DNA from: a virus
IMG/VR virus record: IMGVR_UViG_3300037475_000211
Coordinates: 3,330-67,329 of that record
Reading direction: 5' to 3' (one strand)
Length of the DNA: 64,000 nucleotides
Positions 2,172 to 59,324 of the stretch are shown in pieces. Below the pieces are notes generated by a model. It saw only the letters and a program-made list of their open reading frames with translations. It did not search any database and was not told the origin of the DNA. The stretch's first letter is position 1; each line of letters opens with the position of its first letter. Position numbers and translations under genes: made by a program.

Positions 2172-2399
2172 ATGTTATCTAAATTACAATCAGATACTTT
2201 ACTGCTTCTGTCTAAAAGAAAAAGAAAAAATAGATTATATTTAAATTATTATAGTCATTCTTGGTGTGCTTATAAAAATATTAATAGTAAAGTTGGCATT
2301 TGTTTTATTTGTGATAAAGAATTTATTATGTCCACTGAAGATTGGTGTGAGCACGGATTACAACATTTAAAAGAATCAAATTTATTACCTTTTATGTAA
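2172..2399 (+). CDS. C2H2-type zinc-finger small protein with C-terminal tag variant
   Basis: CFIC...HGLQH; ends NLLPFM. Confidence 0.55.
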   Translation: MLSKLQSDTLLLLSKRKRKNRLYLNYYSHSWCAYKNINSKVGICFICDKEFIMSTEDWCEHGLQHLKESNLLPFM

Positions 2400-2717
2400 G
2401 ATAAAACAGGACAATAATTGTTATGAAAATCAAAGATTTTGCTGAAAAACATATAGGTGTCATTGCGTGTCTTTCTGGAATTTTATTTGGCATTTTGTTA
2501 TTACGTAGTTCTACTTTTAAACAAGGTCCAAAAGAATCACATCGTGAAGATGTTGTTAGGGCATCTAATATAGTTAATAGTAAAGAGCTATATTACGTTA
2601 AAGATAAACGTGTTAATATTTGTTATGCAGTTCATGAGTTTGGATGGAATAGTGGATTACTAACATATGTTCCATGTACTCCTGAAGTTGAGTTAGCCCT
2701 CATTAATAGGGAATAAC

Positions 2718-2733
2718 TCCCATCATATAACGG
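2718..2733 (+). promoter_or_regulatory. TCCCATC-N3-TAACGG motif, copy 1
   Basis: tcccatc ata taacgg, 7 nt before the ATG at 2741. Confidence 0.65.
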
Positions 2734-2740
2734 GAGTATT

Positions 2741-3007
2741 ATGTATATAAAGATTCTAGGCTATGCCGCAATGATGTTTTTAATGCTCGGTGGTTTACCA
2801 CAAGCTTATAAAACATTTAAGCAAGGTCATGCTAATGGAGTATCTTCATATTATATTAATTTTTTATTAACTGGCTTTATATTAATGTTAATTTTTGTTT
2901 GTTTAACAAACAAATCAATTCCTTTGATTGTTAATTATATTGTAAATATAATAGCCTTCTTAATTTTAGCATGGTTTAAATCATTTCCTAGAGTAAAGAA
3001 TGTCTAA
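2741..3007 (+). CDS. PQ-loop / SemiSWEET-like 3-TM transporter
   Basis: LPQAYKTFK...ANGVS PQ-loop signature, three hydrophobic segments, 88 aa. Confidence 0.8.
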   Translation: MYIKILGYAAMMFLMLGGLPQAYKTFKQGHANGVSSYYINFLLTGFILMLIFVCLTNKSIPLIVNYIVNIIAFLILAWFKSFPRVKNV

Positions 3008-3792
3008 TGTAGAAATTGCAATAGAAGTAGCAACAGATCTAATTAGGTCAGGGGCATCAGAAGATCTTGTTAGATCAATTTTGTTACAAACTAGTGAGTT
3101 TACATCTGATAAAGTAGACACAATTTTATTGTGGGCAATTAATTTTAATAAAAAAATGAGGTTTATTAAATGACTTTCGAGCAAATAACTGATAATGAAA
3201 AGGTAATAAATCTAACTTCTTTAGATTTAGTGGTCCACGCTCGGCATCAATTGCTTTCTGCCGCCAAAGATCTAATTAAAGGACCACATCCTGGTGATGT
3301 AGAGTTCGGATTATCTTGTTCAGAACGTGCTGAAGCCCTGCAAATAGCTATTGATTTAGAGCAAAATGTCTAGTAGGTTTTTAAAATTAAAAGAAAATCA
3401 TCCAACACTTATTAAGTTAGAACAAATTTTTAGCTTAATGGAAGAGCTTCAAATAAGTTTTGATTTCTCTAATGTTGGTATGAGAGTAACTGATCAAAGT
3501 CAGGAACGATTTACTTTCTTTTATATGGAAGATTTAGAGGATGATCATAGTCCTATGAGTAATCTTCCACCAACTTTTGAATATAAAGTTCTTGCAGATA
3601 ATCCTAAATTTCTAGAAGAACAAGAATTGGCTACAAAGCAACGTCTTGAACAAGCTCTTAAGAAAAGAGAAGAGGCTGCCTTAAAAGAAGCTGAAGCAAA
3701 AAAGCAAGAGAAAATTCTTCATCTGGCAGAAAGAAAAGCCGCAGCTGTCTCGCTAGAAAAGCAGATTAAAGACTTAGAAAAGGAGTTAGGAA

Positions 3793-4014
3793 ATGAGTAG
3801 CAATAAATCAAATTTGTTTGATCTTTCTAAAGAAGAAATTTCTGAAACGTTATCAGATATTTCTGAAGAAGAAATAACGGAAGTACTAGAATCAATGGTA
3901 GAAAAAGGTTATCTTCGTGCCTTTATTAAAGACGGTGAACGTGTTTATGAAATAACTGAAGAAGGAAAATTAGCCAGAGATCACTCTGATTCCGATCCAA
4001 AACTTAGAAACTAA
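3793..4014 (+). CDS. Small winged-helix (PadR-like wing) protein
   Basis: LESMVEKGYL...VYEITEEGK. Confidence 0.55.
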   Translation: MSSNKSNLFDLSKEEISETLSDISEEEITEVLESMVEKGYLRAFIKDGERVYEITEEGKLARDHSDSDPKLRN

Positions 4015-4019
4015 AACTT

Positions 4020-4450
4020 AATTCAAATTCATTAATCTAAGAAAGAATTCGCTTAGAATAATGGGGTAGTTGCGCGACTACTTTTAGTATTATGAAGGGA
4101 GAGCCTTTAAGGCTTGAAGTTAAAATATTAGATTTGAACGGGTCTCAATAACCGAATAATTGAGGGCGCAGGCGGTCTGCCTTATACTAGCTCCAGTTTA
4201 TGTTAGTTGTTAATCTGGTAATTAAAATAACTTCCTTAGCTCTGTCTCTATGAGCGAATATAATCTAAGAGGGCTTTCCACTATGATTAAGCCATAAAAT
4301 AAAATCATAGAGGCACTGTCTCGCCATATCGACAGCAACATAATTACCTGCTTATCTGTTGTTAAATAGGTAATCCTCACCCTATAATTAATTTGCAAAT
4401 ATGTTAATGGGTCTGGGTTATAAGCAGGAACAATTTTATTCCCACTATAT
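4020..4450 (+). ncRNA. Candidate large structured ncRNA (~430 nt, family unknown; strand inferred from context)
   Basis: No ORF of 60 aa or more; many inverted repeats (tctaag/cttaga, ggggtagtt/gactacttt, gagcct/aggctt, ctcaat/attgag, ctatgatt/aatcatag, ctgtc/gacag, cctgcttat/ataagcagg). Confidence 0.5.
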
Positions 4451-4460
4451 GTGAGGCTTT

Positions 4461-5337
4461 TTGTATTTTAAAAGTAATAGTGATTATATTTCTCAAGGAG
4501 AATTAAGTATGCTGCGATTGCTTGCGGCAATAAAAACTCCTTCTTTATCATTCAAAGATGGATGGGGAGAAATAAAATCAATTCCTGATAAAGGTTTTGT
4601 TTTAAATTGTTTCATTTGTAATGATAGTTTGGAATCAAACTATGATGTTAATATGATTGTTATTCATGGTAAGTTACATTTAAATAATTTAATGAATAAA
4701 TTTTCTATAGAAGAAATTCTCAAATTAGAGTCTATGGCAAACTCTAACTGTTGGTGGAAAATAATTGACCATCAAATTGTTTGCAATATTTGTAATGTAA
4801 ACATTGGTGATGTACTTTTATCAACTGATATTTTTGATAAAGTTATTCTTCATGGAAGAAGACATATTGCTTTAATTTCCTTCTCATGACAGATTTAAAT
4901 AAAGATGAAATTGAAGTTGCATGTCAGCTTTCTTTAAGAAATAAAAATTTATCTCCAGAAGATCGTGCCGAAGTAATACAAGGGTTTTGTGGAAAATGGA
5001 TAAATTCCGGTATCTTTTGTTTTATTTGTAATGATAAATTAAAACAAGATGAGCCTTTTTCTAATCATATTAGGTCTCACATAAAAAAATTCATGGTTTA
5101 TATTTGAAGCCTTTATCTGAAAATCAAATTTCATGTTTATTACTTTTAGCTAAAAGGTCAGGTAGTACTGAAGACCGCTGGATGTCATCTTATGATGAGT
5201 TTAAATTCAAATGTAATATTTGTAATAAAATTTTAAGTAATGATTTTATTTATGATTTTGAATATGAAGGTAATATAATGCCAGATGTTATTCTTCATGG
5301 AAGTGAACATTTAATTAGTTTAAATATTTTTATATGA
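4461..5337 (+). other. Three tandem C2H2 zinc-finger small-protein genes (4461..4889, 4886..5107, 5104..5337)
   Basis: C[FN]IC...H(G)xxH repeats (two in the first ORF); ends ALISFS, KFMVYI, SLNIFI. Confidence 0.6.
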
Positions 5338-5686: not shown

Positions 5687-5971
5687 ATGACTGAACAATC
5701 AGATTTAGAAAAAGAATTTAAAGAGTCTGCCGAAAAATATTCAAGATTAATTGCTGCTAAAGTAGCACAAGCATGTCAATTGCTTTCTGAAGCTTGTGCT
5801 ATTTCAGAAGAGCATGGCATTCCTTTTGATTCCAATATATCTTTCCTTAGTCAAGGATATGTTCCAGATTCCTTTGCAACTAAATTCAAAGGATTAGATC
5901 GAGAAATAATGTATGAAGTTACTGGAGTGTATAACGAATATGAAGGTTGGCAGCATAGCCAAGTGTGTTAA
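5687..5971 (+). CDS. GW-x-x-S...C tail family protein
   Basis: Ends EGWQHSQVC; close paralog of 6659..6973 (GIPF, GYVP). Confidence 0.7.
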   Translation: MTEQSDLEKEFKESAEKYSRLIAAKVAQACQLLSEACAISEEHGIPFDSNISFLSQGYVPDSFATKFKGLDREIMYEVTGVYNEYEGWQHSQVC

Positions 5972-6658: not shown

Positions 6659-6973
6659 ATGACTAATTCAAATGAAGAATCTAAATCAGATCTTGAAATA
6701 GAATTTCAAGCAGCGTATGATAAAGCATTACCTTTAATTAATCTTCATATAAAGGAAGCTAAAGAAGCGATTGCAAAAGCAATTGAAATTGCAAACCAAT
6801 ATGGTATACCATTTAGTGCGGCAGTTTCTCCATTAAGAAATGGATATGTTCCGCGTTCTTTTGAAAGTAAATTTTCTGAACTTGATTCAGAAATAGTAAG
6901 TGAAATTTCTGGAGTATATGATCCAAATGGTGATGCTTTATATGAAGGATGGATTCATAGCGCAGTATGTTGA
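6659..6973 (+). CDS. GW-x-x-S...C tail family protein
   Basis: Ends EGWIHSAVC. Confidence 0.7.
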   Translation: MTNSNEESKSDLEIEFQAAYDKALPLINLHIKEAKEAIAKAIEIANQYGIPFSAAVSPLRNGYVPRSFESKFSELDSEIVSEISGVYDPNGDALYEGWIHSAVC

Positions 6974-7003: not shown

Positions 7004-7243
7004 ATGTCAAATTTAGATAAAGAATTCGATTCAGTTGTATCTGAAGTACAAGATAAGTTAGAACAAGCTCAAAAATTGCTTGCTGAAGCCTTAGCCTTAA
7101 GTAAGAATAATAGTCTTACTTTAGATAAAAATCAAGTTAATACATTATTAGATGCAGTATATGATTTACCAACCAATCAAAATTGGTCTGAGTCAGATGA
7201 TACTACTGGCATTTGGAGCTCTTCATTAAATTATAATTGTTAA
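7004..7243 (+). CDS. W-S-S-S...C tail family protein
   Basis: LDKEF helix; ends GIWSSSLNYNC. Confidence 0.65.
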   Translation: MSNLDKEFDSVVSEVQDKLEQAQKLLAEALALSKNNSLTLDKNQVNTLLDAVYDLPTNQNWSESDDTTGIWSSSLNYNC

Positions 7244-7254
7244 AGGAAATTAAT

Positions 7255-7629
7255 ATGAATGATTATGCAATGGGGGCAATGCCTCCACAACAACATAAAT
7301 GGATGTTAGGTCGTTCTGTTGAAGAAATTAGAGCGATAACATTAACCTCAGAAGAATCTGGCAAATCAATTGATGAAGTAATATCTTCTGGTTCTTGGAA
7401 ACATAAATTTAATGAGCTTGAAATAGAGTATAATAATACTATTAATAGGATTAAATTAAAGATTTCTGAATCTGCTCTTCTCTTAAAAGAAGCTCAAGAT
7501 TTAGCTGCGAGTATAAATCAAGAAGGATTATATAATCTTTTTGATGAAGAGAATGAAAACGATATTATTCAACCTATATTTAATGAATTAGAAAACATTG
7601 GTTGGGCAACATCATCCTTGAGTTGTTAA
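7255..7629 (+). CDS. GW-x-x-S...C tail family protein
   Basis: Ends IGWATSSLSC; ATG at 7255 follows AAGGA. Confidence 0.65.
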   Translation: MNDYAMGAMPPQQHKWMLGRSVEEIRAITLTSEESGKSIDEVISSGSWKHKFNELEIEYNNTINRIKLKISESALLLKEAQDLAASINQEGLYNLFDEENENDIIQPIFNELENIGWATSSLSC

Positions 7630-7630: not shown

Positions 7631-7894
7631 ATGAAAAAAAAGAAACTTTTACCAATAGAAAAAGAATTTATTCTTTTAACTAAGAATATTAATAAGAAAT
7701 TAGAGATTGCTAGGCTTGCCTTACTTGAAGCAAATGCTTTGGCTCAATCCAAAGGTCATATATTAGTTGACTTTGAATATTCATTTGATAATGAGAGATG
7801 GGGTTTGCCTCCTGATTTTGAGCTTCCAGAAATTAAAGTTGATGGCATCAAAGAAGCTTTTAATAAAGTGGGGTGGAGTTCTTCTCACTGTTAG
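7631..7894 (+). CDS. GW-x-x-S...C tail family protein
   Basis: IEKEF...EANALA helix; ends VGWSSSHC. Confidence 0.65.
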   Translation: MKKKKLLPIEKEFILLTKNINKKLEIARLALLEANALAQSKGHILVDFEYSFDNERWGLPPDFELPEIKVDGIKEAFNKVGWSSSHC

Positions 7895-7904: not shown

Positions 7905-8813
7905 ATGATTTTAATTGGTAGTCGTGCCTTAAAATTAAGGACTCCTTTTTTTAAAAGGGAGTGTAAAGATTTTGACTGGATTTGTACTCAAGAAGAATTA
8001 AACCTTTGGCTTGAGAAAAATCTATCTAAAATTGGTGAGCATAAGGCTTATTATTTAGAAGGCAAAGATAATAAATATATTATTGAAGGTGAATCTATTT
8101 GTGAATTCGAAATAGTAAAGCCTAATACTTCTACAGAGTTATTTTATAATTTAGTAAAGTCAGATCCTGATTCTATTGAATCTTCTTTTGGTTTAATTCC
8201 AAGTTTAGATTTATTATTTACTCTTAAATCATCTCACAAATATCTTAAGAATAGTCCCCATTTTTGGAAGAATTTAAAAGACTATCATTTAATGAAAAAT
8301 TTAGGAGCTAAAGTTCGTCCTGAATATAAAGATTTTCTTAAGATGCGAGAAAAAGAAACTTATACTTATCTTCATCCTAAGCTCAATCAAAATAAAAAAG
8401 ACTTCTTTGCTGACGATGGATTGACATATACTTATGATCATGATGATATTCATAAAGCAGTAGCTTTATATGATCGTCCTGCCTATACTTATTACATGAA
8501 AGATGGAGAACAAGTCTTTTCAGATAAGGAAAAGTTCTTTGCTTGCCCAAGAGAAATTCAGTTAGCAGGGGTTCTTGAGGAAAGTTCAGTGCTTGCAATT
8601 GAAAGATCTTTAGTTCCGCATCCTGGTGTAATGACGCCAGAACAAGCTTGGCACTTTGCTTATGGAAAAGTTTGCAGTTCTATAACTTCCGGATGGTTTA
8701 GAGAATTTGGTTATGATAATGCTCCAGAACTTCTTAAATTATATCCAAAAGATTATTATGATAAGTTTCAAAAAGCATTAGCTGATGGAATGGTTAAGCC
8801 CCATAAAGGATAA
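7905..8813 (+). CDS. Putative Pol-beta-superfamily nucleotidyltransferase-like phage protein
   Basis: N-terminal ILIGSRAL...KDFD fits hG[GS]...DxD; C-terminal HDDIH. Confidence 0.6.
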   Translation: MILIGSRALKLRTPFFKRECKDFDWICTQEELNLWLEKNLSKIGEHKAYYLEGKDNKYIIEGESICEFEIVKPNTSTELFYNLVKSDPDSIESSFGLIPSLDLLFTLKSSHKYLKNSPHFWKNLKDYHLMKNLGAKVRPEYKDFLKMREKETYTYLHPKLNQNKKDFFADDGLTYTYDHDDIHKAVALYDRPAYTYYMKDGEQVFSDKEKFFACPREIQLAGVLEESSVLAIERSLVPHPGVMTPEQAWHFAYGKVCSSITSGWFREFGYDNAPELLKLYPKDYYDKFQKALADGMVKPHKG

Positions 8814-8816: not shown

Positions 8817-9521
8817 ATGTTTCCGATTATAATTACAGCAATAATTATTGCAATGTTTATTGCCAATGTTTTCTTTGTAGAATATGAAAGCTATGGCTGG
8901 ACTACACTATCAATGATAGTAACTGGTGTTGCAATTTATTGGTTTAAATTATGGGGACTCCCTCAATGGATTGTAAATCATGGACTATTATGTTTAGCCT
9001 TTGATGGAGCTTATATTGTAATAGGAATAATTTGGTCTTTCATTAAATGGTTTTCATATCTAATTTCTTATCGAGATCATTTTTTAGATATTAAAAATGA
9101 TTATGTTAATTCAAGGAATGATTTAATTGAAAGTCAATGGAAATGGATTCAAGATAATTATATTCTCAATGATGAAGGCAATTTAATTACAAAAGATATT
9201 TTGCCATTCATTCATCCTTATGGAATGAAAACAAATAATGTAATTGAAAAGTATCTTTCACAAGTAAAAGATGGCAATAAATTATATCATAATTTTTCTG
9301 ATGATAAAAGAAAATATTGTAAATTTTACAAACCATTAGCTTATGATAATAAAAGTAAAATCGTAGCGTGGATTTGTTATTGGCCATTCAGTTTAATTGG
9401 TACATTGATTAATGATCCTCTTCGTCGATTGGTAAACTTTTGCTTTGCAAAGCTTAAAGCAACTTATCAAAAAATGTCTGATAGTGTCTTTAAAGAGTTT
9501 CCAGATAAAAATGAGTACTAA
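8817..9521 (+). CDS. Membrane protein, hypothetical
   Basis: Three N-terminal hydrophobic segments; WICYWPFS. Confidence 0.55.
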   Translation: MFPIIITAIIIAMFIANVFFVEYESYGWTTLSMIVTGVAIYWFKLWGLPQWIVNHGLLCLAFDGAYIVIGIIWSFIKWFSYLISYRDHFLDIKNDYVNSRNDLIESQWKWIQDNYILNDEGNLITKDILPFIHPYGMKTNNVIEKYLSQVKDGNKLYHNFSDDKRKYCKFYKPLAYDNKSKIVAWICYWPFSLIGTLINDPLRRLVNFCFAKLKATYQKMSDSVFKEFPDKNEY

Positions 9522-9735
9522 TTATTTGTTTGATTATAAAACAAAAACTGGAGTATATGTTGATACCCTTAACAAATCTAAATGGCATTATTTTAATGGA
9601 GTTCTTCATAGATTAGATGGACCAGCAATAGAATATGAGTCTGGTGTTTGTTATTGGGTTTATAATGGTAAACATATAGCATGTGAATCTCAAGAAGAAT
9701 TTGAGAGAATAGTTAAACTATTGGTATTTATATGA
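9511..9735 (+). CDS. HRxDGPA-repeat small protein with C-terminal tag
   Basis: LHRLDGPAIE...SQEEF; ends KLLVFI. Confidence 0.65.
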   Translation: MSTNYLFDYKTKTGVYVDTLNKSKWHYFNGVLHRLDGPAIEYESGVCYWVYNGKHIACESQEEFERIVKLLVFI

Positions 9736-10010: not shown

Positions 10011-11316
10011 ATGTGTAATGAGTGTACTTTCTCTGAAAGTAAAAATGTTAAACATAATACTCTAAATTTAATTAGAGTGGATAAGGATGGAAAATATCAT
10101 TGTAAAACTTATCCGTGTTATGAATTGTTTTTTGAAAATAAAAAGCTTTGGTCTGCATATAAAATTCATGGTCGACTTCACAGAGAAGACGGACCAGCTG
10201 TTATTGAAATTTCTAAAGATGGCGTAGAACATTATAGTTGGTATATTGACGGATTTTCGTTGAAGGTTTCTTCTCAAGAAGAATTTGTAAATTCTACCTC
10301 TTATAAAGAGTGGAAACTAAGAGCATTCAAATAATGTGTGATGAATGTTTTGCAGAAGACATTGATAGTGAAAAACTTATTAATACAAATTATATTAAAA
10401 TAACTAATCATTTTAGAATAAATACAGACAAATTTCATTGTTTAACTGGTCCAGCAAGAACTTTTGTTTCTAAAAATAAAATTTATTATTACTGGTATGT
10501 TGATGATATTTGGATACATTGTTTTTCTCAAAAAGAATTTGAGTCTTCTAAAGAGTATAGAGTTTGGAAGTTAAAGGCTTTCACATAATGTGTAACGAAT
10601 GCTTTGAAGTTAAAGAGGGTTGTAATTTAATGAGAAGATCAATTAGTAATGGATCTTCTCATTGTTTATCTGATCATGCAATTATACTTAATTATTATAA
10701 GGCTGGATTAAAAATAGCTGATTGGTATATTAATGGGATTCGTATTAATGTAGGATCTCAAGAAGAATTTGAAAAGAGCAAAGAATATAGAGAGTGGAAG
10801 CTGCGAGTGTTTAAATAATGTGTAATGAATGTTTTATCAAAGAGTTTAACTATTTTCACGGAAAATTAGTTCAAAGAATTCAAAGATTTAATAAAAGTCA
10901 TTATCATTGTTTAACTGAACCCGCTAGATTATTCATTTATAATGATAATTTTGGCAGTTCTTTTGCCGACGTCGAAAAAGGTTGGTTCATTAATGGTATT
11001 GAAGTAAAAGTTTCTTCCCAAGAAGAACTAAAGAATTCTAATGAATATAGGATATGGAAGATGAGGGCATTTCATTAAAATAATGTGCAATGAATGTACT
11101 AAAAAAGATTTTAATCTTGCTGATGGAGTTTTAATTCAAAGAATTAATAAAGGATATTATCATTGTTTAACTTCTCCTGCTAGAGTTTTTATTAATAACT
11201 CTGGTAAAGTAGATAAAGATTGGTATATTGGTGGCATGCGAGTTAGAGTTTCTTCCAAAGAAGAGCTTGAGAAATCTTTAGAGTATAGAGAGTGGAAGAT
11301 AAAAGCATTTAAGTGA
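10011..11316 (+). repeat. Array of five tandem paralogous genes (starts 10011, 10334, 10588, 10818, 11083)
   Basis: Each begins MC[ND]EC, has HC, W[YF][IV]xx, S[QK][EK]E and ends WK[LMI][KR][AV]Fx; several joined by TAATG overlaps. Confidence 0.85.
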
Positions 11317-11325: not shown

Positions 11326-12432
11326 ATGTCAAACTGGGAACCACAAGTAGTAAAAATAGAAAAAGTAATTCATCATCCTAATGGTGATGCTTTAGATATT
11401 GCTTATGTTCTAGGAGATTATCCAGTTGTTGTACGACGAGGCGAATATAAAGTTGATGATTTAGCGGCGTATTTACAAGTTGATACGATAACTCCTGACA
11501 CAAATCAATTTTATTTTTTATGTCCAAAGGAATATGAAAAATATCTAGATGGTGATGAAATTAAACAAAGACAAATAGGTCCAAAATATCCTGTCGGTTC
11601 TGTTCCAGAAAAATATAGAGTTCTTAAGGCAAAGAAAATAAGAAATTTCTATTCAGAAGGAATGTTAGTTCCAGTACCAATTGTTAAACCTATACCTTTA
11701 TCTTTAGGAGATTCAGTTGTAGAAGCTTTATCTCTTAAAAAATATGAGGAAGAAAACGAAGAGAATCTACCTAATGTATTTAAAGCTAAAGGAACTAATG
11801 CTGCCCCACCGCCAAAAGGTTGGAGCATTCCGTATTATGACCTTGAAAATGTTAGGAAATATATTAAGTGTGTTGAAGAAGAAAAAGATATTATTCTTAC
11901 TGAAAAATTGAATGGTAGTAACGCCTCATTTTGTTTTGATGGCAATGATTTAGTTGTTAAGTCTCGTAACTATTATAAAAAATTAGATGAAGAAGATGAT
12001 ATGTGGATCGAGCTTGCTACAAGATTAAATCTAAAAGAGAAGCTATCTAAATATCCTATGATGGTTTTGTTTGGAGAATGTATTAATCAAGTAAAGGGAT
12101 TTAGATATCACACCAATTTAGTTGATGGTAAGTTATTAACAAATCTTATTTGTTTTGATATCTTTGATGTTAAAGCTGGAAAGTATTTAGACTATGATGA
12201 CTTTATCACGATAATAAAAGATCTAGATTTAGAATCTGCACCTTTGTTATATAGAGGTCCTTGGACTTCAAAAGAGGAAATGTATTCTTTTGCCGAAGGT
12301 AAATCTATTTTAAATGATAAAATAGTTAGAGAAGGATGGGTCCTTTCATTAGGTAAGGAAAGATTTGAGCCGAAACTTAATTCTAGATGTAAATTAAAAT
12401 TAATTGGAGAAGGTTATAATTTATCAAAATGA
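11326..12432 (+). CDS. ATP-dependent RNA ligase (Rnl2/DRB0094-like, N-terminal OB/tRNA-binding domain)
   Basis: HPNGDAL N-terminus, motif I TEKLNGSN, FGE, FDI, REGWV, C-terminal KLI. Confidence 0.85.
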   Translation: MSNWEPQVVKIEKVIHHPNGDALDIAYVLGDYPVVVRRGEYKVDDLAAYLQVDTITPDTNQFYFLCPKEYEKYLDGDEIKQRQIGPKYPVGSVPEKYRVLKAKKIRNFYSEGMLVPVPIVKPIPLSLGDSVVEALSLKKYEEENEENLPNVFKAKGTNAAPPPKGWSIPYYDLENVRKYIKCVEEEKDIILTEKLNGSNASFCFDGNDLVVKSRNYYKKLDEEDDMWIELATRLNLKEKLSKYPMMVLFGECINQVKGFRYHTNLVDGKLLTNLICFDIFDVKAGKYLDYDDFITIIKDLDLESAPLLYRGPWTSKEEMYSFAEGKSILNDKIVREGWVLSLGKERFEPKLNSRCKLKLIGEGYNLSK

Positions 12433-12686
12433 TAAGTTATGATGAAATTAATGTTTTAGCTGATGAAGTGCATCATACTTTTTATTATGGTAGATTTAAA
12501 ATAGAATTTAATAAAAAAATAGTTATGCTTCATGATGGTAAAAATGATGGTTTTTATTTTGAATTTTTTAATGATAAAATAAATTGGGAACAATTTCCTA
12601 AAAACTCTAAATTAATATCAAAAAAAGTTAAAGATTTTGCAGACATTAAATATAAACAATTTATTAAGTTATCAGCCTTTCTTTAA
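12429..12686 (+). CDS. Small protein with C-terminal tag
   Basis: Ends FIKLSAFL; NDKINW resembles the 22.3-kb paralogs. Confidence 0.55.
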   Translation: MISYDEINVLADEVHHTFYYGRFKIEFNKKIVMLHDGKNDGFYFEFFNDKINWEQFPKNSKLISKKVKDFADIKYKQFIKLSAFL

Positions 12687-14973: not shown

Positions 14974-15699
14974 TTAAATTCTGGAAATATGCTTCCAAGC
15001 ATATCCTAATCTGATTTTTCCAATAGTTATTGATGATACATTAAATTCTAACGCTATTTCATTATCTTTAATATTGTTTTTAATTTTGTTTATAATTAAT
15101 AAAACATCATTTTCTTTTAATTTAGCCCTTGAATTATTTTCACCTTTACTCTGTTCAGACATCTTTTTTCTTGTTTCTGTTGTTGGAATAACAGATATCC
15201 CTTTTCTTCCACGTGAAATTGCAGCGCAAGTTGCAGCAGACCGCTTTTTACCTTTACGTTGTTCCGACCACTTTTTTCTTGTTTCACTTGTATGTTTCAT
15301 GCCAATTTTAGCTTGGCTAATTTTTAATTTTGTTTCTTCTGTTTGGCGTCTGCCAAGCATATTTTTTCTATGTTTCTCTCTTGTTTCATCAGAAACAATT
15401 TTTTTAGATAAATTTCCTCCAAGCTCTATATTGTAGCCTCGGCATTCATCTCTACTTTGTAAATATTCAATCCAAAATATTTCTGCTTCATCAATAATAT
15501 CTGACGAATATTCTGCAAATACAATAAATTCAAAATTATTTATACCATATTTTCTCATAGAACTATATAATTTACCAGGAGCTAACCTAGAAAAACAATC
15601 ATATTTATGTTGATTTTTCCTTCGTGTAGGATTTACAGTTTGTCCTATATAAATTTTATTATTTAAAATATTTCTAAATATATAGATATAATGTGTCAT
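14974..15699 (-). mobile_element. GIY-YIG homing endonuclease with NUMOD3 repeats
   Basis: YIYIF...IYIGQT; ETR/ETKLKIS repeats; GENNSRAKL. Confidence 0.9.
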
Positions 15700-15736: not shown

Positions 15737-16042
15737 ATGAAAGTTTATTTAGATGATGAGCGTAAAACGCCTGATGGTTGGACGAGAACATACTCTGTTA
15801 AAGATACGATTGAGTTACTTAAAACATATCAAGTAAAAGAATTATCTTTAGATCATGATTTGGGAGACGATCAAAAATTAGGAACCGGCTATGATTGCAT
15901 TTTATGGATTGAAGAGAAAGTCTTTAATGATCCGAATTATATTCCACCTATTATGACAATTCATTCTGCTAATCCGGCTGGTAGAAAGAATATGGAATTA
16001 GGAATTAATTCCATTAAAAGAATTATTGAAAATAGAAAATGA
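15737..16042 (+). CDS. Cyclic-phosphate-processing receiver-domain protein
   Basis: VYLDDER, LSLDHDLG, TGYD, IHSANPAG. Confidence 0.8.
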   Translation: MKVYLDDERKTPDGWTRTYSVKDTIELLKTYQVKELSLDHDLGDDQKLGTGYDCILWIEEKVFNDPNYIPPIMTIHSANPAGRKNMELGINSIKRIIENRK

Positions 16043-45272: not shown

Positions 45273-46277
45273 ATGCATGAAATTTTATTAGCTAAACCAA
45301 AATTAGATCCTTCATTTATAGATTCCAGTGTGGGTGAACCATATCTTATCAGAGATAATCTCTTTGAGATGTTTACTTGGGATGAAGATGTTGGCGGAGT
45401 AGATTTATCTTATCCTTATCCTCAAGGTTATGAACCATTAGTTAAGATGCTGGAAGATAAACATCAAGCTCCAGTAATAGTAACTAATGGCGCGAAACAA
45501 GCCTTAGGAGCCGCCTTTTATACTCTTCATAAGTTAGGCAAAACTAATATGAAGATGCGTAGTCCTTACTGGGCATTGATTCCACCATTAGCTGATATGC
45601 ACGGAATAACTCCTGTCTTTGATGAATCAAATAAAGATATTAACAGTTATTTGTGTATAGCACCTAATAATCCTGATGGGTGGCATCCACTTAATTTAAA
45701 GGCATTAGCACAAGAATATAAAGATAAAGGTATTCCATTTATACATGATGGGGCGTACTATAATAGGATTTATATTCAAAATCAAGACTATAATGCACCT
45801 ATTGGTGATGTTCAAATTTATACATTCTCTAAATCATTAGGATTATCTGGACTTAGATTAGGCTATGCGGTTTGTCACAATACAGAATTTTATAATCATA
45901 TGTCGGCTTATATGGAAGCTATGACGGTGGGAGTTTCAACGGTATCTCAACGCTATTTGTATAATTTATTACAGGTTATGAATTTAGATAAGCCTTTGAC
46001 TGAAGCGTTTGAAGATAAATGCTTTGAGGAATTAAATCAAAATAAATATCTTTGTGATAATATAAATCCTGAAGTATTAGAAGTTCCCATGGAGGCAGTT
46101 CAAATGCCAGGTATGTTTGGTTGGTATAAAGTTGGACCTAAGGCTGACTTTAATAAAGCAAAAATACATTTTGTTGGTGGTAAACTATTTGGAGCTGAGG
46201 ATATGGTTAGACTTAACTTAGCTTTCAAAAAAGAAACAATTAAAGAGATAGTTAACAGATTAAATAATTTAGTATGA
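45273..46277 (+). CDS. PLP-dependent aminotransferase, class I/II
   Basis: TNGAKQAL, PNNPDG, DGAY, FSKSLGLSGLRLG, VRL. Confidence 0.88.
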   Translation: MHEILLAKPKLDPSFIDSSVGEPYLIRDNLFEMFTWDEDVGGVDLSYPYPQGYEPLVKMLEDKHQAPVIVTNGAKQALGAAFYTLHKLGKTNMKMRSPYWALIPPLADMHGITPVFDESNKDINSYLCIAPNNPDGWHPLNLKALAQEYKDKGIPFIHDGAYYNRIYIQNQDYNAPIGDVQIYTFSKSLGLSGLRLGYAVCHNTEFYNHMSAYMEAMTVGVSTVSQRYLYNLLQVMNLDKPLTEAFEDKCFEELNQNKYLCDNINPEVLEVPMEAVQMPGMFGWYKVGPKADFNKAKIHFVGGKLFGAEDMVRLNLAFKKETIKEIVNRLNNLV

Positions 46278-46956
46278 CATATATTGCCACTATATTTTGC
46301 TTAACTTCAGAATATCATAAGCAAATTCCATCTGAACTTATAAATTTAGGATATGAAGTTTCATCATCTTTTGATGATGGCAAATGTTTTTTTGTTAAAA
46401 ATATTGTTACTATAATTATATATAAGTTAAGAACTGAAGATGATAAAAAATGTATTGATGTAACCAGAGATATTAAAATTGCTATTAATAATATTAAAGG
46501 ATATTGTTATGGAATAGTAGTTAATAAAGGTCAATCACATTCTGCATTTGGAAATATAGATGGTGCGACAGATCCCACAAGGATTTTGCAATTAAAAGCA
46601 TTATGGTAAAATAGCATATGAGTTCATATATAGTTTTTATTACTTGTTTAACTGGGGAGTATCATAAACAATTGCCTTCACTCTTGCTTGAAGCAGGCTA
46701 TGAAATTAAAGCAGGATATGATAACGGAATGTGTTTTTTCACAAAAGGTATTGTGACAAATATATGTTATATGTTAACATCGAATAATAATGATTCTGTA
46801 TCTATTCGTAATGATGTTAAAATTTGTTTAGAAAAAATGAAAGCTTACTATTATGCTATAGTAGTATTTTCAGCCGGAGAAAGTGCTGTTTGTCTTGGAA
46901 ATATAAACGGAGAAACTGATCCGTCTAGAGTTTTACAACTAAAATCTTTGTGGTAA
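46274..46956 (+). other. Two tandem paralogous genes (46274..46609, 46618..46956) with C-terminal tag variant
   Basis: Shared CLT.EYHKQ.PS.L...GY; end LQLKALW and LQLKSLW. Confidence 0.75.
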
Positions 46957-50750: not shown

Positions 50751-50957
50751 ATGACATTATTTCTAATTGTATTAGCTGTTATAGTATTGATCCTATCTAT
50801 TCGTTATGGATTCTTTGGACTAATACTTGATATTATATTTGCCATCTTAGGTTCCAAAGGTGGTGATTCTTCTAGTTCCGATTCGTCAGGTTCATCTAAT
50901 GGAAATGGATTTGGTGGAGGAGATTCTGGTGGTGGCGGAGCTTCCAGTGATTGGTAA
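50751..50957 (+). CDS. Small TM protein with Gly/Ser-rich tail
   Basis: Ends GFGGGDSGGGGASSDW. Confidence 0.65.
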   Translation: MTLFLIVLAVIVLILSIRYGFFGLILDIIFAILGSKGGDSSSSDSSGSSNGNGFGGGDSGGGGASSDW

Positions 50958-50975: not shown

Positions 50976-52088
50976 ATGAAAAAATATATTACACTATTGA
51001 TTGCCGTACTTGCTACGGTCTTTACGGCGAATGCTTTTGCATTTACTCCCCCAGATAAGCCTGCTAGTGGCTGGTATATCCTTGATCAAGCCAATAAATT
51101 AACTGAAGATCAAAAAACCAATCTCAATAAAAAGATTGATGGAATTAATAAAAATACTAAAAATGAATTTGGTGTTTTAATTATTCAGTCAATGGATGGA
51201 GATAACATTGAAGATGTTGCTCAGAATACTTTCCGAGCTTGGGGAGTTGGTAAGGCTGGATTAAATAACGGAGTACTATTAGTTATTTCTGTAGGTGATC
51301 GTAAGATGCGATTGCAAACTGGCAAAGGTGTTGAAGGTGATTTGCCAGACTTACGAGCAAAAGATATTTTAGATGAAAATCTTAAACCTTTCCTTAAGAA
51401 GGGAGATTATTATGGCGGTATTGATTCTACTATTAGTGCAGCCTCTTCTTTCTTAGAGAGTAGAGCTAATGCTCCAGTGGAAACTGTATCAAATACTTCT
51501 GGTGCAACTTCGAAAAATTCTGGAGTGGAATGGCTAATAGTATTATTGTTCTTGGGAATTTTTGGTGGAGTTGGTCTTATTTCTTGGCTTGTAAGCCGAA
51601 GTAAACGTAAACGAGAAGAAGAAAGCAATCGTCTTTATGAGTCTTCAAGAATCTTTGCGCTTCAGCAAGAAAGAGCTAGACTTCAAGAAGCTATGTTCGC
51701 AAAACCTTATCACATAGATAATAGCTTTACTTCAACCCACACTTCAAAAACTGAAATTTCAGCAACTGCCATTGGTGTTGGTGCAGTAGCCGCCGCAGCG
51801 GGTATTGGTGGTATTGCAATAGCAACAACTGCAGTTAGTCGTGCTGCTGAAGCTAAGAAGCGTAAAGCTGCTGAAGAACGAGAGGCTGAAGCTGTTAAGC
51901 GTAAAAAGGAAGAAGAAGATGCGACGGCGCGTAGACGTAGTGAAGAAAGTTCATATTCGTCATATTCTTCTTCAGATAGTGGAAGCAGCTATAGTAGCTA
52001 TGATAGTGGAAGTAGTTCCAGCTATGATAGTGGTGGAGGATTTGGTGGTGGTGACAGCGGCGGCGACGGCGGGTCTAGTGATTTCTAG
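50976..52088 (+). CDS. TPM-domain (YgcG-like) membrane protein
   Basis: Signal peptide, DQANKL, WGVGK...NNGVLL, G.G.EG.LPD; Gly/Ser tail ending GGSSDF. Confidence 0.88.
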   Translation: MKKYITLLIAVLATVFTANAFAFTPPDKPASGWYILDQANKLTEDQKTNLNKKIDGINKNTKNEFGVLIIQSMDGDNIEDVAQNTFRAWGVGKAGLNNGVLLVISVGDRKMRLQTGKGVEGDLPDLRAKDILDENLKPFLKKGDYYGGIDSTISAASSFLESRANAPVETVSNTSGATSKNSGVEWLIVLLFLGIFGGVGLISWLVSRSKRKREEESNRLYESSRIFALQQERARLQEAMFAKPYHIDNSFTSTHTSKTEISATAIGVGAVAAAAGIGGIAIATTAVSRAAEAKKRKAAEEREAEAVKRKKEEEDATARRRSEESSYSSYSSSDSGSSYSSYDSGSSSSYDSGGGFGGGDSGGDGGSSDF

Positions 52089-54378: not shown

Positions 54379-54675
54379 ATGAATTGTTTAATAAAACAAA
54401 GAAAAGAAAGAGAAGCTCAAAAAGAATCAGAGGTTCAAAAATTTTTTAAACTAGCCAAATTAAAATTGAGAAATGATATTAGAGATATATTAATGTCAGA
54501 TCCATTTGAATGGAGTAGCTCTGGTATACCGGGGACATTTATCATTCATATTTATTCTAAGTATGCTTCTGCATTTTTTGATCAACAAAAAGATGATTGG
54601 GAATATTATATATCAAATTTAAGAGTATCAGAAGATTATTTTTTTAAATATTTAAAATTGAAAGCGTTTATTTAG
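54379..54675 (+). CDS. Small protein with C-terminal tag
   Basis: Ends YLKLKAFI. Confidence 0.55.
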   Translation: MNCLIKQRKEREAQKESEVQKFFKLAKLKLRNDIRDILMSDPFEWSSSGIPGTFIIHIYSKYASAFFDQQKDDWEYYISNLRVSEDYFFKYLKLKAFI

Positions 54676-55591: not shown

Positions 55592-56227
55592 ATGTTAACA
55601 TTATCACTATGGAAAAAAGCCGAACCTCAAAGTTCATTTCAGTTTATTGGAAATAAAATTGGAGATGGGGCAGATGGTGAAGTTTTTGAGATGGCTGGTT
55701 ATGAAGATAAAGTTATAAAGGTTTCTATTATTTTTGATCATGAGTTTGAAGGAGATTTAGATTTAAAATTTAAGTATGTCTCTTTATCTAGAGTATTAGA
55801 TGAGTTGCAGGTAACTTGTCCAAGTATCTGCGCGTGTGTATATGAGTATGAATGCATTGGCATATTCCAGCGGGATGTATCAATTAATAATATTAAATCG
55901 CAGCAAGATTATCTCTTACATTATTATGTGATGGAAAAATGTTATAAATTGACGGAGGATGAAAAAAAATTATTTCATACCATCCTGTCTCACGAAGATC
56001 GTAACATCGAGAAAAATTTTTCAATTGAAATGTTGCAAGAAATATTATTTGGATTATCGAAGGGGCTTGACTTCGATAATAAAAAGGTTACATTTTTCTA
56101 CAAATCTTTGATGGAATCCCCCATCAAACATTTGGATCTGCACCCTCGTAATATTATGAAAAATAAAGACGGAGATTTCAAGCTTATAGACTTTGATCAA
56201 ATAAAGTTATTTCCAGGTTTTACCTGA
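55592..56227 (+). CDS. Protein-kinase-like phosphotransferase
   Basis: IGDGADGEVF, VIK, YVME, HLDLHPRNIM, LIDFD. Confidence 0.8.
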   Translation: MLTLSLWKKAEPQSSFQFIGNKIGDGADGEVFEMAGYEDKVIKVSIIFDHEFEGDLDLKFKYVSLSRVLDELQVTCPSICACVYEYECIGIFQRDVSINNIKSQQDYLLHYYVMEKCYKLTEDEKKLFHTILSHEDRNIEKNFSIEMLQEILFGLSKGLDFDNKKVTFFYKSLMESPIKHLDLHPRNIMKNKDGDFKLIDFDQIKLFPGFT

Positions 56228-56791
56228 TTTTATATAATAAATAGTAGTACTGGTTACATTAAATCTTTTAGCCAATTCAGTTATAGTACTTCCATTATTT
56301 AATTCATCTTTAATAATTTTAACGTTTTCATTGTTTAATTTGGCAAAATGACTTTTTTCTCCAGAATGTGAAATAGATTTCAGTTTTTTAGTTTCTTCAG
56401 AATCTTTTATTCCTATATGAGAGATTGACATTTTATTTTTACTTTCTTCACTAAATTTCTTTCCCCACATAGGATGATTTTTCCCGCCAGCAGAACCACC
56501 ATTACCACCAGGCTTAATGTTTAAACCATTTTCAATAGATTTATATAAAATAATATATTTAATTTCGGCATCGTAACTATCTTTTTCTATTTGAAAAGAT
56601 TGAATAACTTCTAACTCAAAATTTTCAAATCCATATTTTCTCATAGATCTATATAGTTTTGTACACTCATATTTTCCTTTGTGATTTTTAGCCAAATTAA
56701 TATGAGCCTTAAATCTTTTTGTGGGATTAATAGATTTTCCAATATAAACTTTATTGTTAATTTTATTAATTATCTTGTATACGTAAAACAT
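56207..56791 (-). mobile_element. GIY-YIG homing endonuclease with NUMOD3 and HTH
   Basis: YVYKI...VYIGKS; HPMWGKK.SEE; paralog of 14974..15699. Confidence 0.88.
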
Positions 56792-57238
56792 TTTTTCTTG
56801 CATTTTAATATGCAAAAATATTCAGATTGGAGTTTGTATGAAAGTAGATATTTCTTATTTAAAAGAGTTGGTTGTTGAGCTTGAAACCTTATTATCTGAA
56901 GCTGATCTTTTGAAAGATTCAAAGTCCGGTAACTCTGAAAGGGATGAAGCTTTCAATAAAAAGTTTCTTGTCACTATGTGCAAGACAGCTGGTGTTTGTA
57001 TGGGTATTACCCAAGAAGGCAGCATGTTGATTGGTGATATACAAAAAGTTATTGGGTCTAGTTTTGCTTCTCCAAAAGCAAAAGAAGATGCAATTGAAGC
57101 TCTTTTAGGAAACTTTAACAAATCAATAAAAACAACCAATAATAATTAATAAAATTTTAAAGCCCTTGCAGGGTGAATTGCAATGATTAAATTAATAATG
57201 ATTGTTAATTTTTAGCTTTTAATAATTAGGAGATTAAA

Positions 57239-57520
57239 ATGTATTCGACAGATAAAAATGATGTGAAGCAACTTGCGCAGCAAATTGAAAATTTAGCTCG
57301 TGAAGTTGTAGTTCGTGTTGATAATGGCGGGGATTTACTATCAGTTGCTAATGAGTTAGTACGAAATAATGCTACTTTTATCTTTACTCTTGGCGAGGTT
57401 TATGCTTTAGAGCAAACAAAAACTTTTTCCAATAAGAAATCAAAGATTAAGGTCGCAAGAAGTTCTGGTGGAAACTATCATAATCTTCGCGATAGTCGTG
57501 GGCGTTTCGCTAAAGTCTAA
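57239..57520 (+). CDS. Hypothetical protein with basic tail
   Basis: AGGAG RBS; ends HNLRDSRGRFAKV. Confidence 0.55.
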   Translation: MYSTDKNDVKQLAQQIENLAREVVVRVDNGGDLLSVANELVRNNATFIFTLGEVYALEQTKTFSNKKSKIKVARSSGGNYHNLRDSRGRFAKV

Positions 57521-57547
57521 TTAAAATTTTATATAGGAGTAGAAATT

Positions 57548-57910
57548 ATGAGTGATAATATTAAGAAAGCAGTGAGTGAGTTTGAAGTTATTGCCAAAGC
57601 TACTGAAGAAGCTTTAAATGAGTGGTCGGGCGAAGGTTGTTTACAGTTCCCTGCATTACTTGCTACAATGGCTGTAAAGTTTAATTGGGAAGAACAAGAG
57701 GTTCGCAAGAATGATCCTTTGGTTAGATTCTATATTAGACAGCATGCTGATTGGCATGTAACTCGTGGTGCTCATGGTGGTATTATGAGAATGTCTGAGA
57801 AGCAAAAGAAAGAGCAATCAAAGGTAGCTAAGAATGCTGCTAAGGAAGCTGCACGCGCTGCAGTAGAAGCAAAGTCTGATGCGCCTGCAACTGATTCTGT
57901 TGTAGAATAA
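57548..57910 (+). CDS. Winged-helix-like protein, paralog 3
   Basis: FPALLA...HVTRGAHGGI shared with 27487 and 28214; Ala/Lys-rich tail. Confidence 0.6.
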   Translation: MSDNIKKAVSEFEVIAKATEEALNEWSGEGCLQFPALLATMAVKFNWEEQEVRKNDPLVRFYIRQHADWHVTRGAHGGIMRMSEKQKKEQSKVAKNAAKEAARAAVEAKSDAPATDSVVE

Positions 57911-57922
57911 ATTAAATTATTT

Positions 57923-57965
57923 ATAGCGTAGGATGAGTTATAAAACTTTTTCTACGCTATTTTTA
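57923..57965 (+). terminator. Intrinsic terminator
   Basis: atagcgtagga/ttctacgctat hairpin followed by a T run. Confidence 0.65.
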
Positions 57966-57994
57966 TTTTGTGATATATAAAATTTGAGGTAATT

Positions 57995-58576
57995 ATGGGC
58001 TCATTAGATTCATCATTGTTTGATATTTTTTCTACCAAAATGTTATTTGGTACGTTAATGGCTGCCGGCTTAGTAAGTGTAGTATCTTGTTCTTCTTGTT
58101 CAAAAGAGAATACAGTTAGCCCGCCAAAGCCAGTTCCTACAGTCAGTGTAACTCCAGTTCCACCGCCAGCTCCAACTACTCAAGAAATAACAGATAGTAA
58201 ATTTACCCTTACTATTCCTGTTGGTTTTAAAAATCAAGGATCAGATGATCCAGAGTATTTCTTGTTTGCTGATGAAAATAATAAACAATTATTATCAATT
58301 ATGCATCAAAAATATTCTTCTACATATGAAGAATATGTATTAGAAGGAATTAGATCTCTTAAAGAGCATAATGCAATAGTTCATTCAGCTATTAAAACTA
58401 CTTTAGGAAATCAAGAATTTATAGTGGTTGAATCAACTAAAGATGGGGTTATTGCTTGGTTGTGGTTTACAACTAAAGATAATATAGGATATACAATTAC
58501 TTGTGGCGGACTTGAATCATCAACTACGGTTCATGATGTTTGTTTTAATCTGGCAAAATCATTTGAGATTAAGTGA
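57995..58576 (+). CDS. Lipoprotein with Pro-rich linker, PsbP/DcrB-like
   Basis: VVSC, PPKPVP, F.L.IP.GF...GYTITC; GATATATA at 57972-57979. Confidence 0.5.
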   Translation: MGSLDSSLFDIFSTKMLFGTLMAAGLVSVVSCSSCSKENTVSPPKPVPTVSVTPVPPPAPTTQEITDSKFTLTIPVGFKNQGSDDPEYFLFADENNKQLLSIMHQKYSSTYEEYVLEGIRSLKEHNAIVHSAIKTTLGNQEFIVVESTKDGVIAWLWFTTKDNIGYTITCGGLESSTTVHDVCFNLAKSFEIK

Positions 58577-58898
58577 AAACTTGGAAAATGGAAATGGCAG
58601 TCGTTGCTGCCATTCTAATATTAGTTAACGTATTAACTCATAAATTATTTTCATTAGAATTAATATCAGCATTAGCTGTTCTATTAACTTTTGGTCATGC
58701 TCAAATTTCTAGTAGATTAAGTGAACAACAATCATTAGAAGAGCAGCCCACAGTAGAATGTTATAGAAAACTTCTTTTTTATTATCTTGGAAAAGAAGTT
58801 TGTTGGTTTTGGTATTTTTTAATTAGTGAATCATATTCTGCATTAGTTGGAGTTATTGTATTTTTATTTTACCCTTTATGGCGTAAATATTATAAATC

Positions 58899-59324
58899 AT
58901 GAAAGTAAAGTGTCCCATTTGTGCAACATGGTTGACTAAGAAATCAATCAATGTTTATTGGAACTATGAAACAATACACAACTCATTAGTTTGCAATAAT
59001 TGTGTTAAAAAACAGGGCTATTCATTTAGGGTAGAATTAAGTCAATTTTATGAAAATGATCCTTATTCATCATTAACAATGTCATTTTTGCATAAGAAAT
59101 TTTACTGTAGTGGAATTATAACAAATTATAAAAACAATAAAATAGATATTTCTTTTTATGTACAAAGCAAATTATATGGTGGCTTAGAAGATATTACATA
59201 TAGAAAAAAATTCTCATTTAATGATCTATGCGATCAAAATATAGACATTTTAGATTATAATGAAGTATATTGGCTCTTTAAAAAGGAAGCTTGTCGTTGG
59301 GCTAAGTTACAATTATTTTCATAA
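58899..59324 (+). CDS. Zn-ribbon protein with C-terminal tag variant
   Basis: CPIC...CNNC; ends WAKLQLFS. Confidence 0.55.
   Translation: MKVKCPICATWLTKKSINVYWNYETIHNSLVCNNCVKKQGYSFRVELSQFYENDPYSSLTMSFLHKKFYCSGIITNYKNNKIDISFYVQSKLYGGLEDITYRKKFSFNDLCDQNIDILDYNEVYWLFKKEACRWAKLQLFS

Follow-up and report, generated by a model that had tools for sequence, protein, structure and literature searches.

A shared C-terminal ending on small, unrelated proteins of a jumbo-phage fragment: a candidate docking handle

Tagged genes of the window

We analyzed 64,000 nucleotides of viral DNA, hereafter the window, which span positions 3,330 to 67,329 of the IMG/VR record IMGVR_UViG_3300037475_000211 (G000) and cover nearly all of its 67,329 bp. 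The window has a G+C content of about 30%, holds almost all of its genes on the + strand, and encodes about 35 small proteins that close with one short shared ending, the tail, of which KLKAFI and NLRAFS are examples. An initial annotation, which located each open reading frame (ORF) by its start and not by its end, had pointed out this set, and all 31 of the strong endings it listed were found in the translations (Table 1). Two entries had to be amended: the ending NLKAFI belongs to ORF 22133..22285 and not to the one that starts at 22024, and the protein at 19385 departs from the motif at position −5, counted from the last residue. The WEPAF paralogue at 22024..22285 can be read as a single gene only with read-through of a frameshift in a run of seven Ts, and could reflect a pseudogene, an assembly error or slippage. 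As also remarked in that annotation, the recognizable enzymes of the window, namely an RNA ligase, a glutathionylspermidine synthase, an aminotransferase, a TPM phosphatase and a cytidylyltransferase-like protein, lack the ending.

A DNA comparison with deposited phages gave no near match to the window, whose proteins are, individually, 27–43% identical to large-myovirus proteins, and no relative of its 400-residue protein was found in viral_contigs. The record is syntenic with bases 32–95 kb of a second IMG/VR record of 447,763 bp (G001; CheckV completeness 100%), with which it shares 88 reciprocal best hits, typically at 45–80% identity. Since it matches part of a complete genome in this way, G000 represents a piece of a jumbo-phage genome of roughly 450 kb.

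Table 1. Genes of the window whose products carry the ending, strong or weak
Coordinates	Strand	Protein	Ending	Basis
9511..9735	+	single HREDGPA (MORN-like) repeat protein	...SQEEFERIVKLLVFI	translation
10011..10334	+	MCNEC family (Zn knuckle and HREDGPA-like hairpins)	WKLRAFK	
10334..10588	+	MCNEC family	WKLKAFT	
10588..10818	+	MCNEC family	WKLRVFK	
10818..11078	+	MCNEC family	WKMRAFH	
11083..11316	+	MCNEC family	WKIKAFK	
12429..12686	+	tagged small protein	KLSAFL	
16039..16305	+	Zn-ribbon/beta-meander family	KLKLYL	
16302..16580	+	Zn-ribbon/beta-meander family; AlphaFold2-modelled	RLKAFS	
16773..17162	+	tagged protein	KLKVYI	
17380..17643	+	Zn-ribbon family	KLKSFL	
19385..19693	+	Zn-ribbon family	SNRAFS (weak; N, not L, at −5)	
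22024..22285	+	third WEPAF paralogue, split by a frameshift in a T7 run	NLKAFI (in ORF 22133..22285)	
22287..22532	+	WEPAF family	KLKAFI	
22535..22786	+	WEPAF family	KLKAFS	
24288..24614	+	tagged protein	NLKSFS	
24611..24955	+	tagged protein	RLRAFL	
24952..25260	+	SELDF family	NLKVFL	
25257..25592	+	SELDF family	NLQCFA	
25602..25859	+	tagged protein	NLKVFY	
27748..28125	+	tagged protein	TLKAFS	
32710..33030	+	Zn-ribbon family	TLKVFI	
33031..33321	+	Zn-ribbon family	NLRAFS	
35457..35687	+	tagged protein	KLTAFI	
38132..38425	+	tagged protein	KLKAFL	
38425..38697	+	paralogue of 38132	KLRAFS	
38705..39031	+	tagged protein	KMKAFL	
46274..46609	+	ferredoxin-like family; AlphaFold2-modelled	QLKALW	
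46618..46956	+	ferredoxin-like family	QLKSLW	
54379..54675	+	tagged protein	KLKAFI	
58899..59324	+	CxxC protein	KLQLFS (KLQVFS in the G001 orthologue)	
2172..2399	+	C2H2-like protein	NLLPFM (weak)	
4461..4889	+	C2H2-like protein	ALISFS (weak; directly after H-x3-H)	
4886..5107	+	C2H2-like protein	FMVYI (weak)	
5104..5337	+	C2H2-like protein	LNIFI (weak)	

Excess, position and conservation of the ending

We counted tails with a strict pattern, [LMI][KRQTS][AVSLC][FYL]-x-stop, and a relaxed one, [LMI]-x-[small/aliphatic]-[FY]-x. The strict pattern was matched by 29 of the 145 greedy + strand ORFs of at least 40 residues in the window, while shuffling whole proteins gave a mean of 0.51 matches and shuffling the last 12 residues alone, an enrichment check of the kind that the initial annotation had proposed, a mean of 0.60 (2000 shuffles and a maximum of 4 in both cases). 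As an outside control, only 7 of 1634 ORFs from 119 unrelated IMG/VR loci matched, and with both kinds of shuffle likewise falling far short, we could discard composition as the source of the motif. The same excess was seen in the whole records: 28 of 155 ORFs in G000, both strands included, versus 0.7 expected from shuffles, and 84 of 772 in G001 versus 3.6, which rises to 117 versus 7.9 with the relaxed pattern. A penultimate Phe occurs in 153 of the 772 G001 ORFs, where 37 would be expected, and a degenerate DNA pattern for K-[LIM]-K-[AVS]-F-x-stop has 49 matches in that genome against 5 for its reversed control. The motif is moreover bound to the end of the protein. In the window, LKAF-x is found 8 times at a C-terminus and never internally, and the looser L[KR][AVS]F-x 18 times versus 4; across G000 and G001 together, where tagged proteins have a median length of 97–99 residues, the core [KN][LMI][KR][AVS]F stands exactly one residue before the stop codon in 76 of its 78 occurrences.

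The consensus of the tail is [KR]-[FY/LI]-x-[KN]-[LMI]-[K, less often L/I/M]-[A/S/V]-F-x-COOH. Among the 112 strict tails of these two records, position −2 is Phe in 102 and Tyr in 3, position −3 is Ala, Val or Ser in 106 (74, 18 and 14, respectively; Leu in 5), and position −4 is Lys or Arg in 96. Leu, Met or Ile occupies −5 in all of them by construction of the pattern; upstream of it, we found Lys or Asn at −6 in 94 (Gln in 3), and Lys or Arg at −9 in 89, while −8 and −11 are hydrophobic. Leu, Ile and Trp are the commonest choices for the last residue, which varies (L 31, I 29, W 12, S 10, K 7, T 6, others), whereas the rule that exactly one residue follows the Phe is a strict constraint.

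Selection on the tail acts at the level of the peptide. Its coding DNA is conserved with a three-base, codon periodicity; the third base of the Ala codon in 30 window tails is A in 12, T in 9, G in 7 and C in 2, which bears out the synonymous variation already noticed in the window; and beyond the stop codon of the tagged genes no base is conserved (at most 0.3 bit). It is this freedom of the third position, together with the lack of conservation past the stop, that leads to the conclusion. Among the 88 G000/G001 pairs, 13 are tagged in both genomes and 74 in neither, and in the remaining one a single partner carries the near-tail KLAAFT. Identity between orthologues rises from 46% in the body to 64% at positions −12 to −7 and 78% at −6 to −2, so that, as judged from the aligned sequences, the ending is better conserved than the protein that bears it.

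The ending is spread over other phages. Counted with the relaxed pattern, it closes 38 of 234 ORFs in G002 (91 kb, CheckV 20%, G+C 0.39), 4 of 21 in G003 (12 kb, 3%, 0.36), 3 of 54 in G004 (48 kb, 11%, 0.48), 4 of 57 in G005 (39 kb, 100%, 0.34) and 4 of 37 in G006 (20 kb, 5%, 0.42), and the tail-bearing records thus span G+C contents from 0.30 to 0.48. A metagenome scan with one HREDGPA/MCNEC-type member from G001 retrieved 18 loci, many with tandem arrays of repeat genes, all ending in ...SSQEEFER..KLKA[FL]W; going by these sequences, the tail also closes HREDGPA repeat proteins in many other uncultured phages. A scan of IMG/VR with the DNA pattern of a single tail gave chance matches only among at least 119 loci, and one with a two-tail pattern gave 46 loci, 7 of them true and 3 of those in G001. 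In GTDB, with one genome per prokaryote species, a query combining HREDGPA and tail found two weak loci, neither of them tailed, by a method that detects close relatives only. We found no description of this ending or of an HREDGPA/tail system in the titles and abstracts of the literature, a level at which motifs given in supplementary files would escape.

The window holds other recurrent C-termini as well. Six ORFs (3..485, 5687..5971, 6659..6973, 7004..7243, 7237..7629 and 7631..7894), which sit just upstream of a DUF7275/DUF7277 protein at 7905..8813, end in G-W-x-x-S-x-x-(x)-C with a terminal Cys, as in IGWSSSSLSC, IGWATSSLSC, VGWSSSHC and EGWQHSQVC. The adjacent ORFs 50751..50957 and 50976..52088, the second of which encodes a TPM-domain protein, have similar Gly-rich acidic tails, GDSGGGGASSDW and GDSGGDGGSSDF, and the overlapping small ORFs 1447..1680 and 1649..1828 have the similar ends LDDLEIKCNAR and VNSLEIKCTSH.

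Bodies, predicted structures and possible roles of the tail

The proteins that carry the tail are otherwise unrelated, as had been claimed for the window: after removal of the last 16 residues, 30 of its tagged proteins fall into 17 BLAST clusters, and the 112 strict-pattern proteins of G000 and G001, trimmed by 10 residues, fall into 67, of which 52 are singletons. In 66 profile–profile comparisons of 12 window groups with hhalign only the tails align, and no pair exceeds 3% probability once the last seven residues are cut. A single superfamily detectable by sequence is therefore not supported, as neither BLAST nor hhalign finds anything shared without the tail. No Pfam or PHROG match was obtained at E ≤ 0.001 for 29 tagged window proteins, nor any Pfam or PHROG family for 16 further tagged or candidate proteins of G001 other than one PTH2 enzyme, which ends VIKKLQVLK, fits the loose pattern alone and was counted as a false positive. 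Two groups could be followed further. ORF 9511, which reads ...FNGVLHRLDGPAIEY...WVYNG... and fits a repeat of about 23 residues, W-x-x-N-G-x-x-H-R-x-D-G-P-A, belongs together with the MCNEC family to the HREDGPA (MORN-like) hairpin proteins; its homologues (P0018–P0022 and loci L122–L137) have 2 to 10 repeats each, and Pfam recognizes in such repeat proteins DUF6745 alone, with one match over threshold (33 bits, cut-off 27), the rest below it and no MORN model listed. For the Zn-ribbon family, the largest of the families without repeats, a search of 1.84 billion proteins gave 156 representatives at E ≤ 0.001, and 139 of the 144 examined have Phe at −2. Extensions of at least 10 residues occur at the N-terminus in 12 of these 144 and at the C-terminus in one.

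AlphaFold2 predicts the tail on two different folds. Modelled from a 19-sequence family alignment, the Zn-ribbon protein 16302 comes out as a Zn-ribbon and a six-strand meander of three hairpins followed by a helix at residues 75–91 of 92, with a predicted local distance difference test (pLDDT) of 89 and a predicted template-modelling score (pTM) of 0.78. A Foldseek search with this model returned no clear structural relative (E ≥ 0.03); its weak fold neighbors are single-layer meanders and polo-box-like beta6-alpha domains (VIA Z ≤ 5.7). The model of 46274, built from six family sequences, has a confident ferredoxin-like body at residues 1–94, for which Foldseek found no match at E ≤ 0.001, and a detached tail at residues 95–111 with a pLDDT below 50, although it is in this tail that the family is most conserved. 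As a homotrimer, this family reaches an interface score ipSAE of 0.54 versus 0.00 for the best of three controls, with at least 88% contact agreement between runs and a partner pLDDT of at least 73. Among proteins of solved structure, 20 of 30 pairs and 1 of 23 single chains reach the mark that the trimer passes; these counts hold only roughly for 46274, as the calibration used two copies and alignments of its own.

The reading that we favor, at a probability of roughly 0.4, is that the tail is a portable terminal docking handle that requires a free C-terminus; that it docks on anything, and on what kind of partner, we infer. The tag would form the final two to three turns of a C-terminal alpha-helix, and the end made of Leu at −5, a small residue at −3 and Phe at −2, with its flanking lysines and the free carboxylate one residue past the Phe, would fit a site on one common partner. 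The task of such a handle would be independent of the body attached to it, and a phage of roughly 450 kb could in this manner treat as a single group about 15% of its small, rapidly evolving proteins. In the HREDGPA/MORN-like and Zn-ribbon hairpin families, the same helix would also cover the sheet in cis; the module probably originated in beta-hairpin families and may later have been reused. The initial annotation had seen in these proteins a library of variable binder or effector domains that plug into one partner through a terminal helix. A helical module selected as a peptide, the free C-terminus, the unrelated bodies and at least two predicted folds all agree with this proposal, but its one shared partner found no support, as no reader was identified.

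The most serious competitor, which we regard as a possible though tentative explanation, is purely structural: the tail would be the C-terminal core or capping helix of a single fast-evolving superfamily of beta-hairpin mini-proteins derived from HREDGPA/MORN-like repeats, with no common reader, and it would stay constant while the exposed sheet diversifies because it contributes the larger part of the hydrophobic core or a contact within an oligomer. Several observations speak for this and weigh against docking. In the 16302 model, three hairpins lead into a confident terminal helix of 17 residues (pLDDT about 91 at residues 81–90), the tail being predicted as its end and as a part of the domain, and the weak neighbors of that model are of the fitting single-layer and polo-box-like kind. 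Hydrophobic periodicity at −15, −11/−12, −8, −5 and −2 in the Zn-ribbon alignment suggests that Leu(−5) and Phe(−2) face the protein's own sheet. The interface of the 46274 trimer consists mostly of residues 76–97, but residues 104, 107, 108 and 111 of the tail touch the neighboring subunit, so this tail may also be structural. No Pro or Gly occurs in the 13 residues upstream of 125 of the 146 relaxed-pattern tails of G000 and G001, and these therefore look like the end of a longer helix, whereas the remaining 21 resemble short modules added to the body. HREDGPA repeat proteins of many phages universally carry the ending, and its variants go with the family of the body, irrespective of the genome: ..AFW or ..ALW closes HREDGPA bodies everywhere, the last residue of Zn-ribbon bodies is L, I, S or T, and K and L/I/M coexist at −4 inside G001. 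The tail thus shows no genome-wide co-variation that would suggest a lineage-specific reader. Apart from these observations, a caveat for docking is that the ORF sets of whole genomes are crude greedy calls on both strands and not curated genes.

Other evidence is difficult to accommodate in a purely structural role. Neither the ferredoxin-like family nor the C2H2-like proteins belong to the hairpin meanders, and the body of 46274 is predicted to fold confidently without its tail. Between families nothing similar is left once the tail is removed, yet the lysines at −4, −6 and −9 are conserved across them. In the Zn-ribbon family, an extension of at least 2 residues at the C-terminus is found in 4 of 144 representatives, while one of at least 5 residues at the N-terminus is found in 22, and the helix is no more amphipathic than its shuffles. 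Docking best explains the strict free end, the conserved lysines, the persistence of the tail beyond that of the bodies, and the ferredoxin-like fold with its flexible linker; a structural role best explains the integral helix of the Zn-ribbon proteins, the universal tail of the HREDGPA proteins and the family-specific variants. The two are not mutually exclusive.

A point of a different nature, also unfavorable to docking, is that no convincing reader emerged from the comparison of the seven tail-bearing records and from domain searches of G001 and G005. The non-tail families most widely shared by the seven records are GIY-YIG homing endonucleases, a small 'KGKGGGV' protein, a RuvC-like nuclease, DnaJ and thioredoxin. 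According to BLAST, G005 has in common with G001 just the RuvC-like gene, thioredoxin, GIY-YIG endonucleases and one structural repeat family. As this complete, tail-bearing genome of 39 kb shares no plausible reader gene with G001, any protein partner is more likely a conserved host protein, and a protein reader, if there is one, is probably encoded by the host. The beta-clamp model PF02767 had no match in G001 or G005 while its controls worked, and the gp45 model PF09116 gave no match but was silent in its own controls as well. An overview of the G001 proteome with Pfam covered 110 of 254 large ORFs and the first 25 of 82 families; this genome also encodes EF-Ts, a class II aminoacyl-tRNA synthetase, PTH2, PARG and an ADP-ribosylglycohydrolase. 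As for the window's own members of the shared families, a protein of 112 residues (28214..28552) has ...KGKGGGV... near its C-terminus, no Pfam match, and homologues in G001 (two), G002 (two) and G006, its family being one of the few non-tail families common to four tail-bearing records. Genes for GIY-YIG/NUMOD3 homing endonucleases lie at 14974..15699 and 56207..56815, both on the − strand, and belong to the widest-shared family, present in 5 of the 7 records.

If the tail is indeed a docking handle, it may be taken one step further, to an address label by which one conserved machine, either a host hub or the assembly core of the virion, routes more than 100 unrelated, fast-evolving mini-proteins as one class. 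This is unlikely on present evidence; under it, the purpose would be, for example, to inject the proteins together with the DNA, to time their destruction or to recruit them to one site, and the HREDGPA/MORN-like binder arrays of many uncultured phages would share the label.

A special case of docking, which we consider rather improbable, is a handle for proteolysis or chaperoning, read by a Clp-type protease (host ClpXP or ClpAP, or a phage ClpP pair) or by DnaK through a phage DnaJ, which would time the turnover of the small proteins or help them fold. DnaK/DnaJ and some C-terminal signals of ClpX favor peptides rich in Leu, Phe and Lys, as the tail is. G001 carries two tandem bona fide ClpP genes (E 1e-50 and 6e-46) and a full-length DnaJ with J domain, Zn centre and C-terminal domains that adjoins the RuvC-like gene; the sites noted for the ClpP pair with a neighboring 463-residue ORF and for the DnaJ/RuvC-like genes are 221835..222978 and 256253..257212 of that genome (L151, L152). 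G003 and G006 also have DnaJ homologues at a distance of a few kb from their tail genes, but these records may be mere syntenic relatives of G001, and the neighborhood is therefore not independent evidence. On the other side, no clear ClpX- or ClpA-type unfoldase was found beside the ClpP pair, whose 463-residue neighbor has no Pfam or PHROG match (AAA_2 gives a weak match elsewhere); G005 is complete and has tails, but neither ClpP nor DnaJ is among its BLAST links to G001; and the last residue, which is key in C-terminal degrons, is variable here.

Slightly more improbable still is the idea that the ligand is not a protein, and that a basic, hydrophobic C-terminal helix would bind the inner membrane, as in MinD and FtsA, or nucleic acid. 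The last 11 residues have a net charge of about +2, with Leu, Phe, Trp or Ile at the tip, many bodies are Zn-ribbon or C2H2-like, and a ligand present in every host would account for the broad host range that the spread in G+C content implies. However, the hydrophobic moment of these 11 residues (0.32) is that of untagged C-termini (0.32) and of shuffled tails (0.33), a helical wheel calculation puts the Lys or Arg at −9 inside the hydrophobic arc, and in membrane helices the distance to the carboxylate does not have to be fixed, nor is such sequence identity required. That the motif works as a DNA element at gene ends (a recombination linker, ribosome-binding site or terminator), or through an effect of the nascent peptide on termination or re-initiation, is most improbable of all: many tagged genes do overlap or abut the next start codon (ATGA, TAATG), but tails precede overlapping starts and long spacers alike, the identical peptide is kept from G+C 0.30 to 0.48, and the codon periodicity, free third positions and unconserved bases past the stop described above largely rule out the DNA element.

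Should the tail prove to be a docking handle, it would give a shared functional basis to a large part of the 'dark' small genes of giant phages, a part that amounts to about 15% of a 448-kb genome and further includes the repeat-protein arrays found in many other uncultured phages, and a synthetic peptide could be used to fish out the partner. Even if it is only structural, it defines a very large class of hyper-divergent phage mini-proteins that profile searches miss. A nine-residue C-terminal signature nevertheless recognizes this class, which is useful for annotation and for finding libraries of fast-evolving binders.

Comparison with known systems

Among C-terminal signals, ssrA-like degrons of ClpXP depend on defined last two or three residues and the carboxylate, and PDZ-ligand and PTS1-type signals take their specificity from the last residue and the one at −2 from it. 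The tail resembles neither kind, its last residue being variable and its conserved positions lying at −2 to −9; nor is it a strongly amphipathic helix of the MinD/FtsA type, as its hydrophobic moment indicates. The capsid targeting sequence of T4 internal proteins likewise makes one class of unrelated small phage proteins by means of a short shared peptide, and the initial annotation had offered it as an analogy. The likeness fails on position, however: the T4 sequence is N-terminal and is removed by the prohead protease, whereas the motif described here is C-terminal.

In function, the closest parallels are offered by clamp-binding peptides and the HbYX motif. The C-terminal tails of T4 gp43, gp33 and gp55 bind gp45, and the bacterial beta-clamp motif is QL[SD]LF; both are short hydrophobic peptides at or near the C-terminus of unrelated proteins that are read by one hub, a feature of the clamp system, and the spacing x-L-x-x-F is similar, above all in the endings of 46274 and 46618. 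In contrast, the fourth motif position (−3 here) is Ala, Ser or Val and only in 5 of 112 tails the Leu of the clamp consensus, and the Gln at −6 is found in 3. The tail is also basic, predicted to be helical and borne by about 15% of the genes, none of which encodes a recognizable replisome protein. The HbYX motif of proteasome activators, hydrophobic-Tyr-X-COOH, has a penultimate aromatic residue followed by exactly one variable residue, and requires a free carboxylate, as the tail would. The tail has the form small/hydrophobic-aromatic-X-COOH, but its aromatic residue is Phe in 102 of 112 cases and Tyr in 3, and its conserved part extends back 9 to 12 residues; the proteasome/HslV model PF00227, which gave a match in 10 of 14 control genomes, gave none in G001 or G005.

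The nearest structural parallel is with MORN proteins in which a helix lies on the sheet, as in the MORN4–Myo3a complex and in the backbone helix of junctophilin. There, too, a single-layer hairpin sheet is covered by an alpha-helix, and the HREDGPA bodies and the predicted meander of 16302 would fit such an arrangement. The helix described here is set apart from these by being short, by being the protein's own C-terminus, by its near-invariant sequence, and by its occurrence on bodies that are not hairpins as well.

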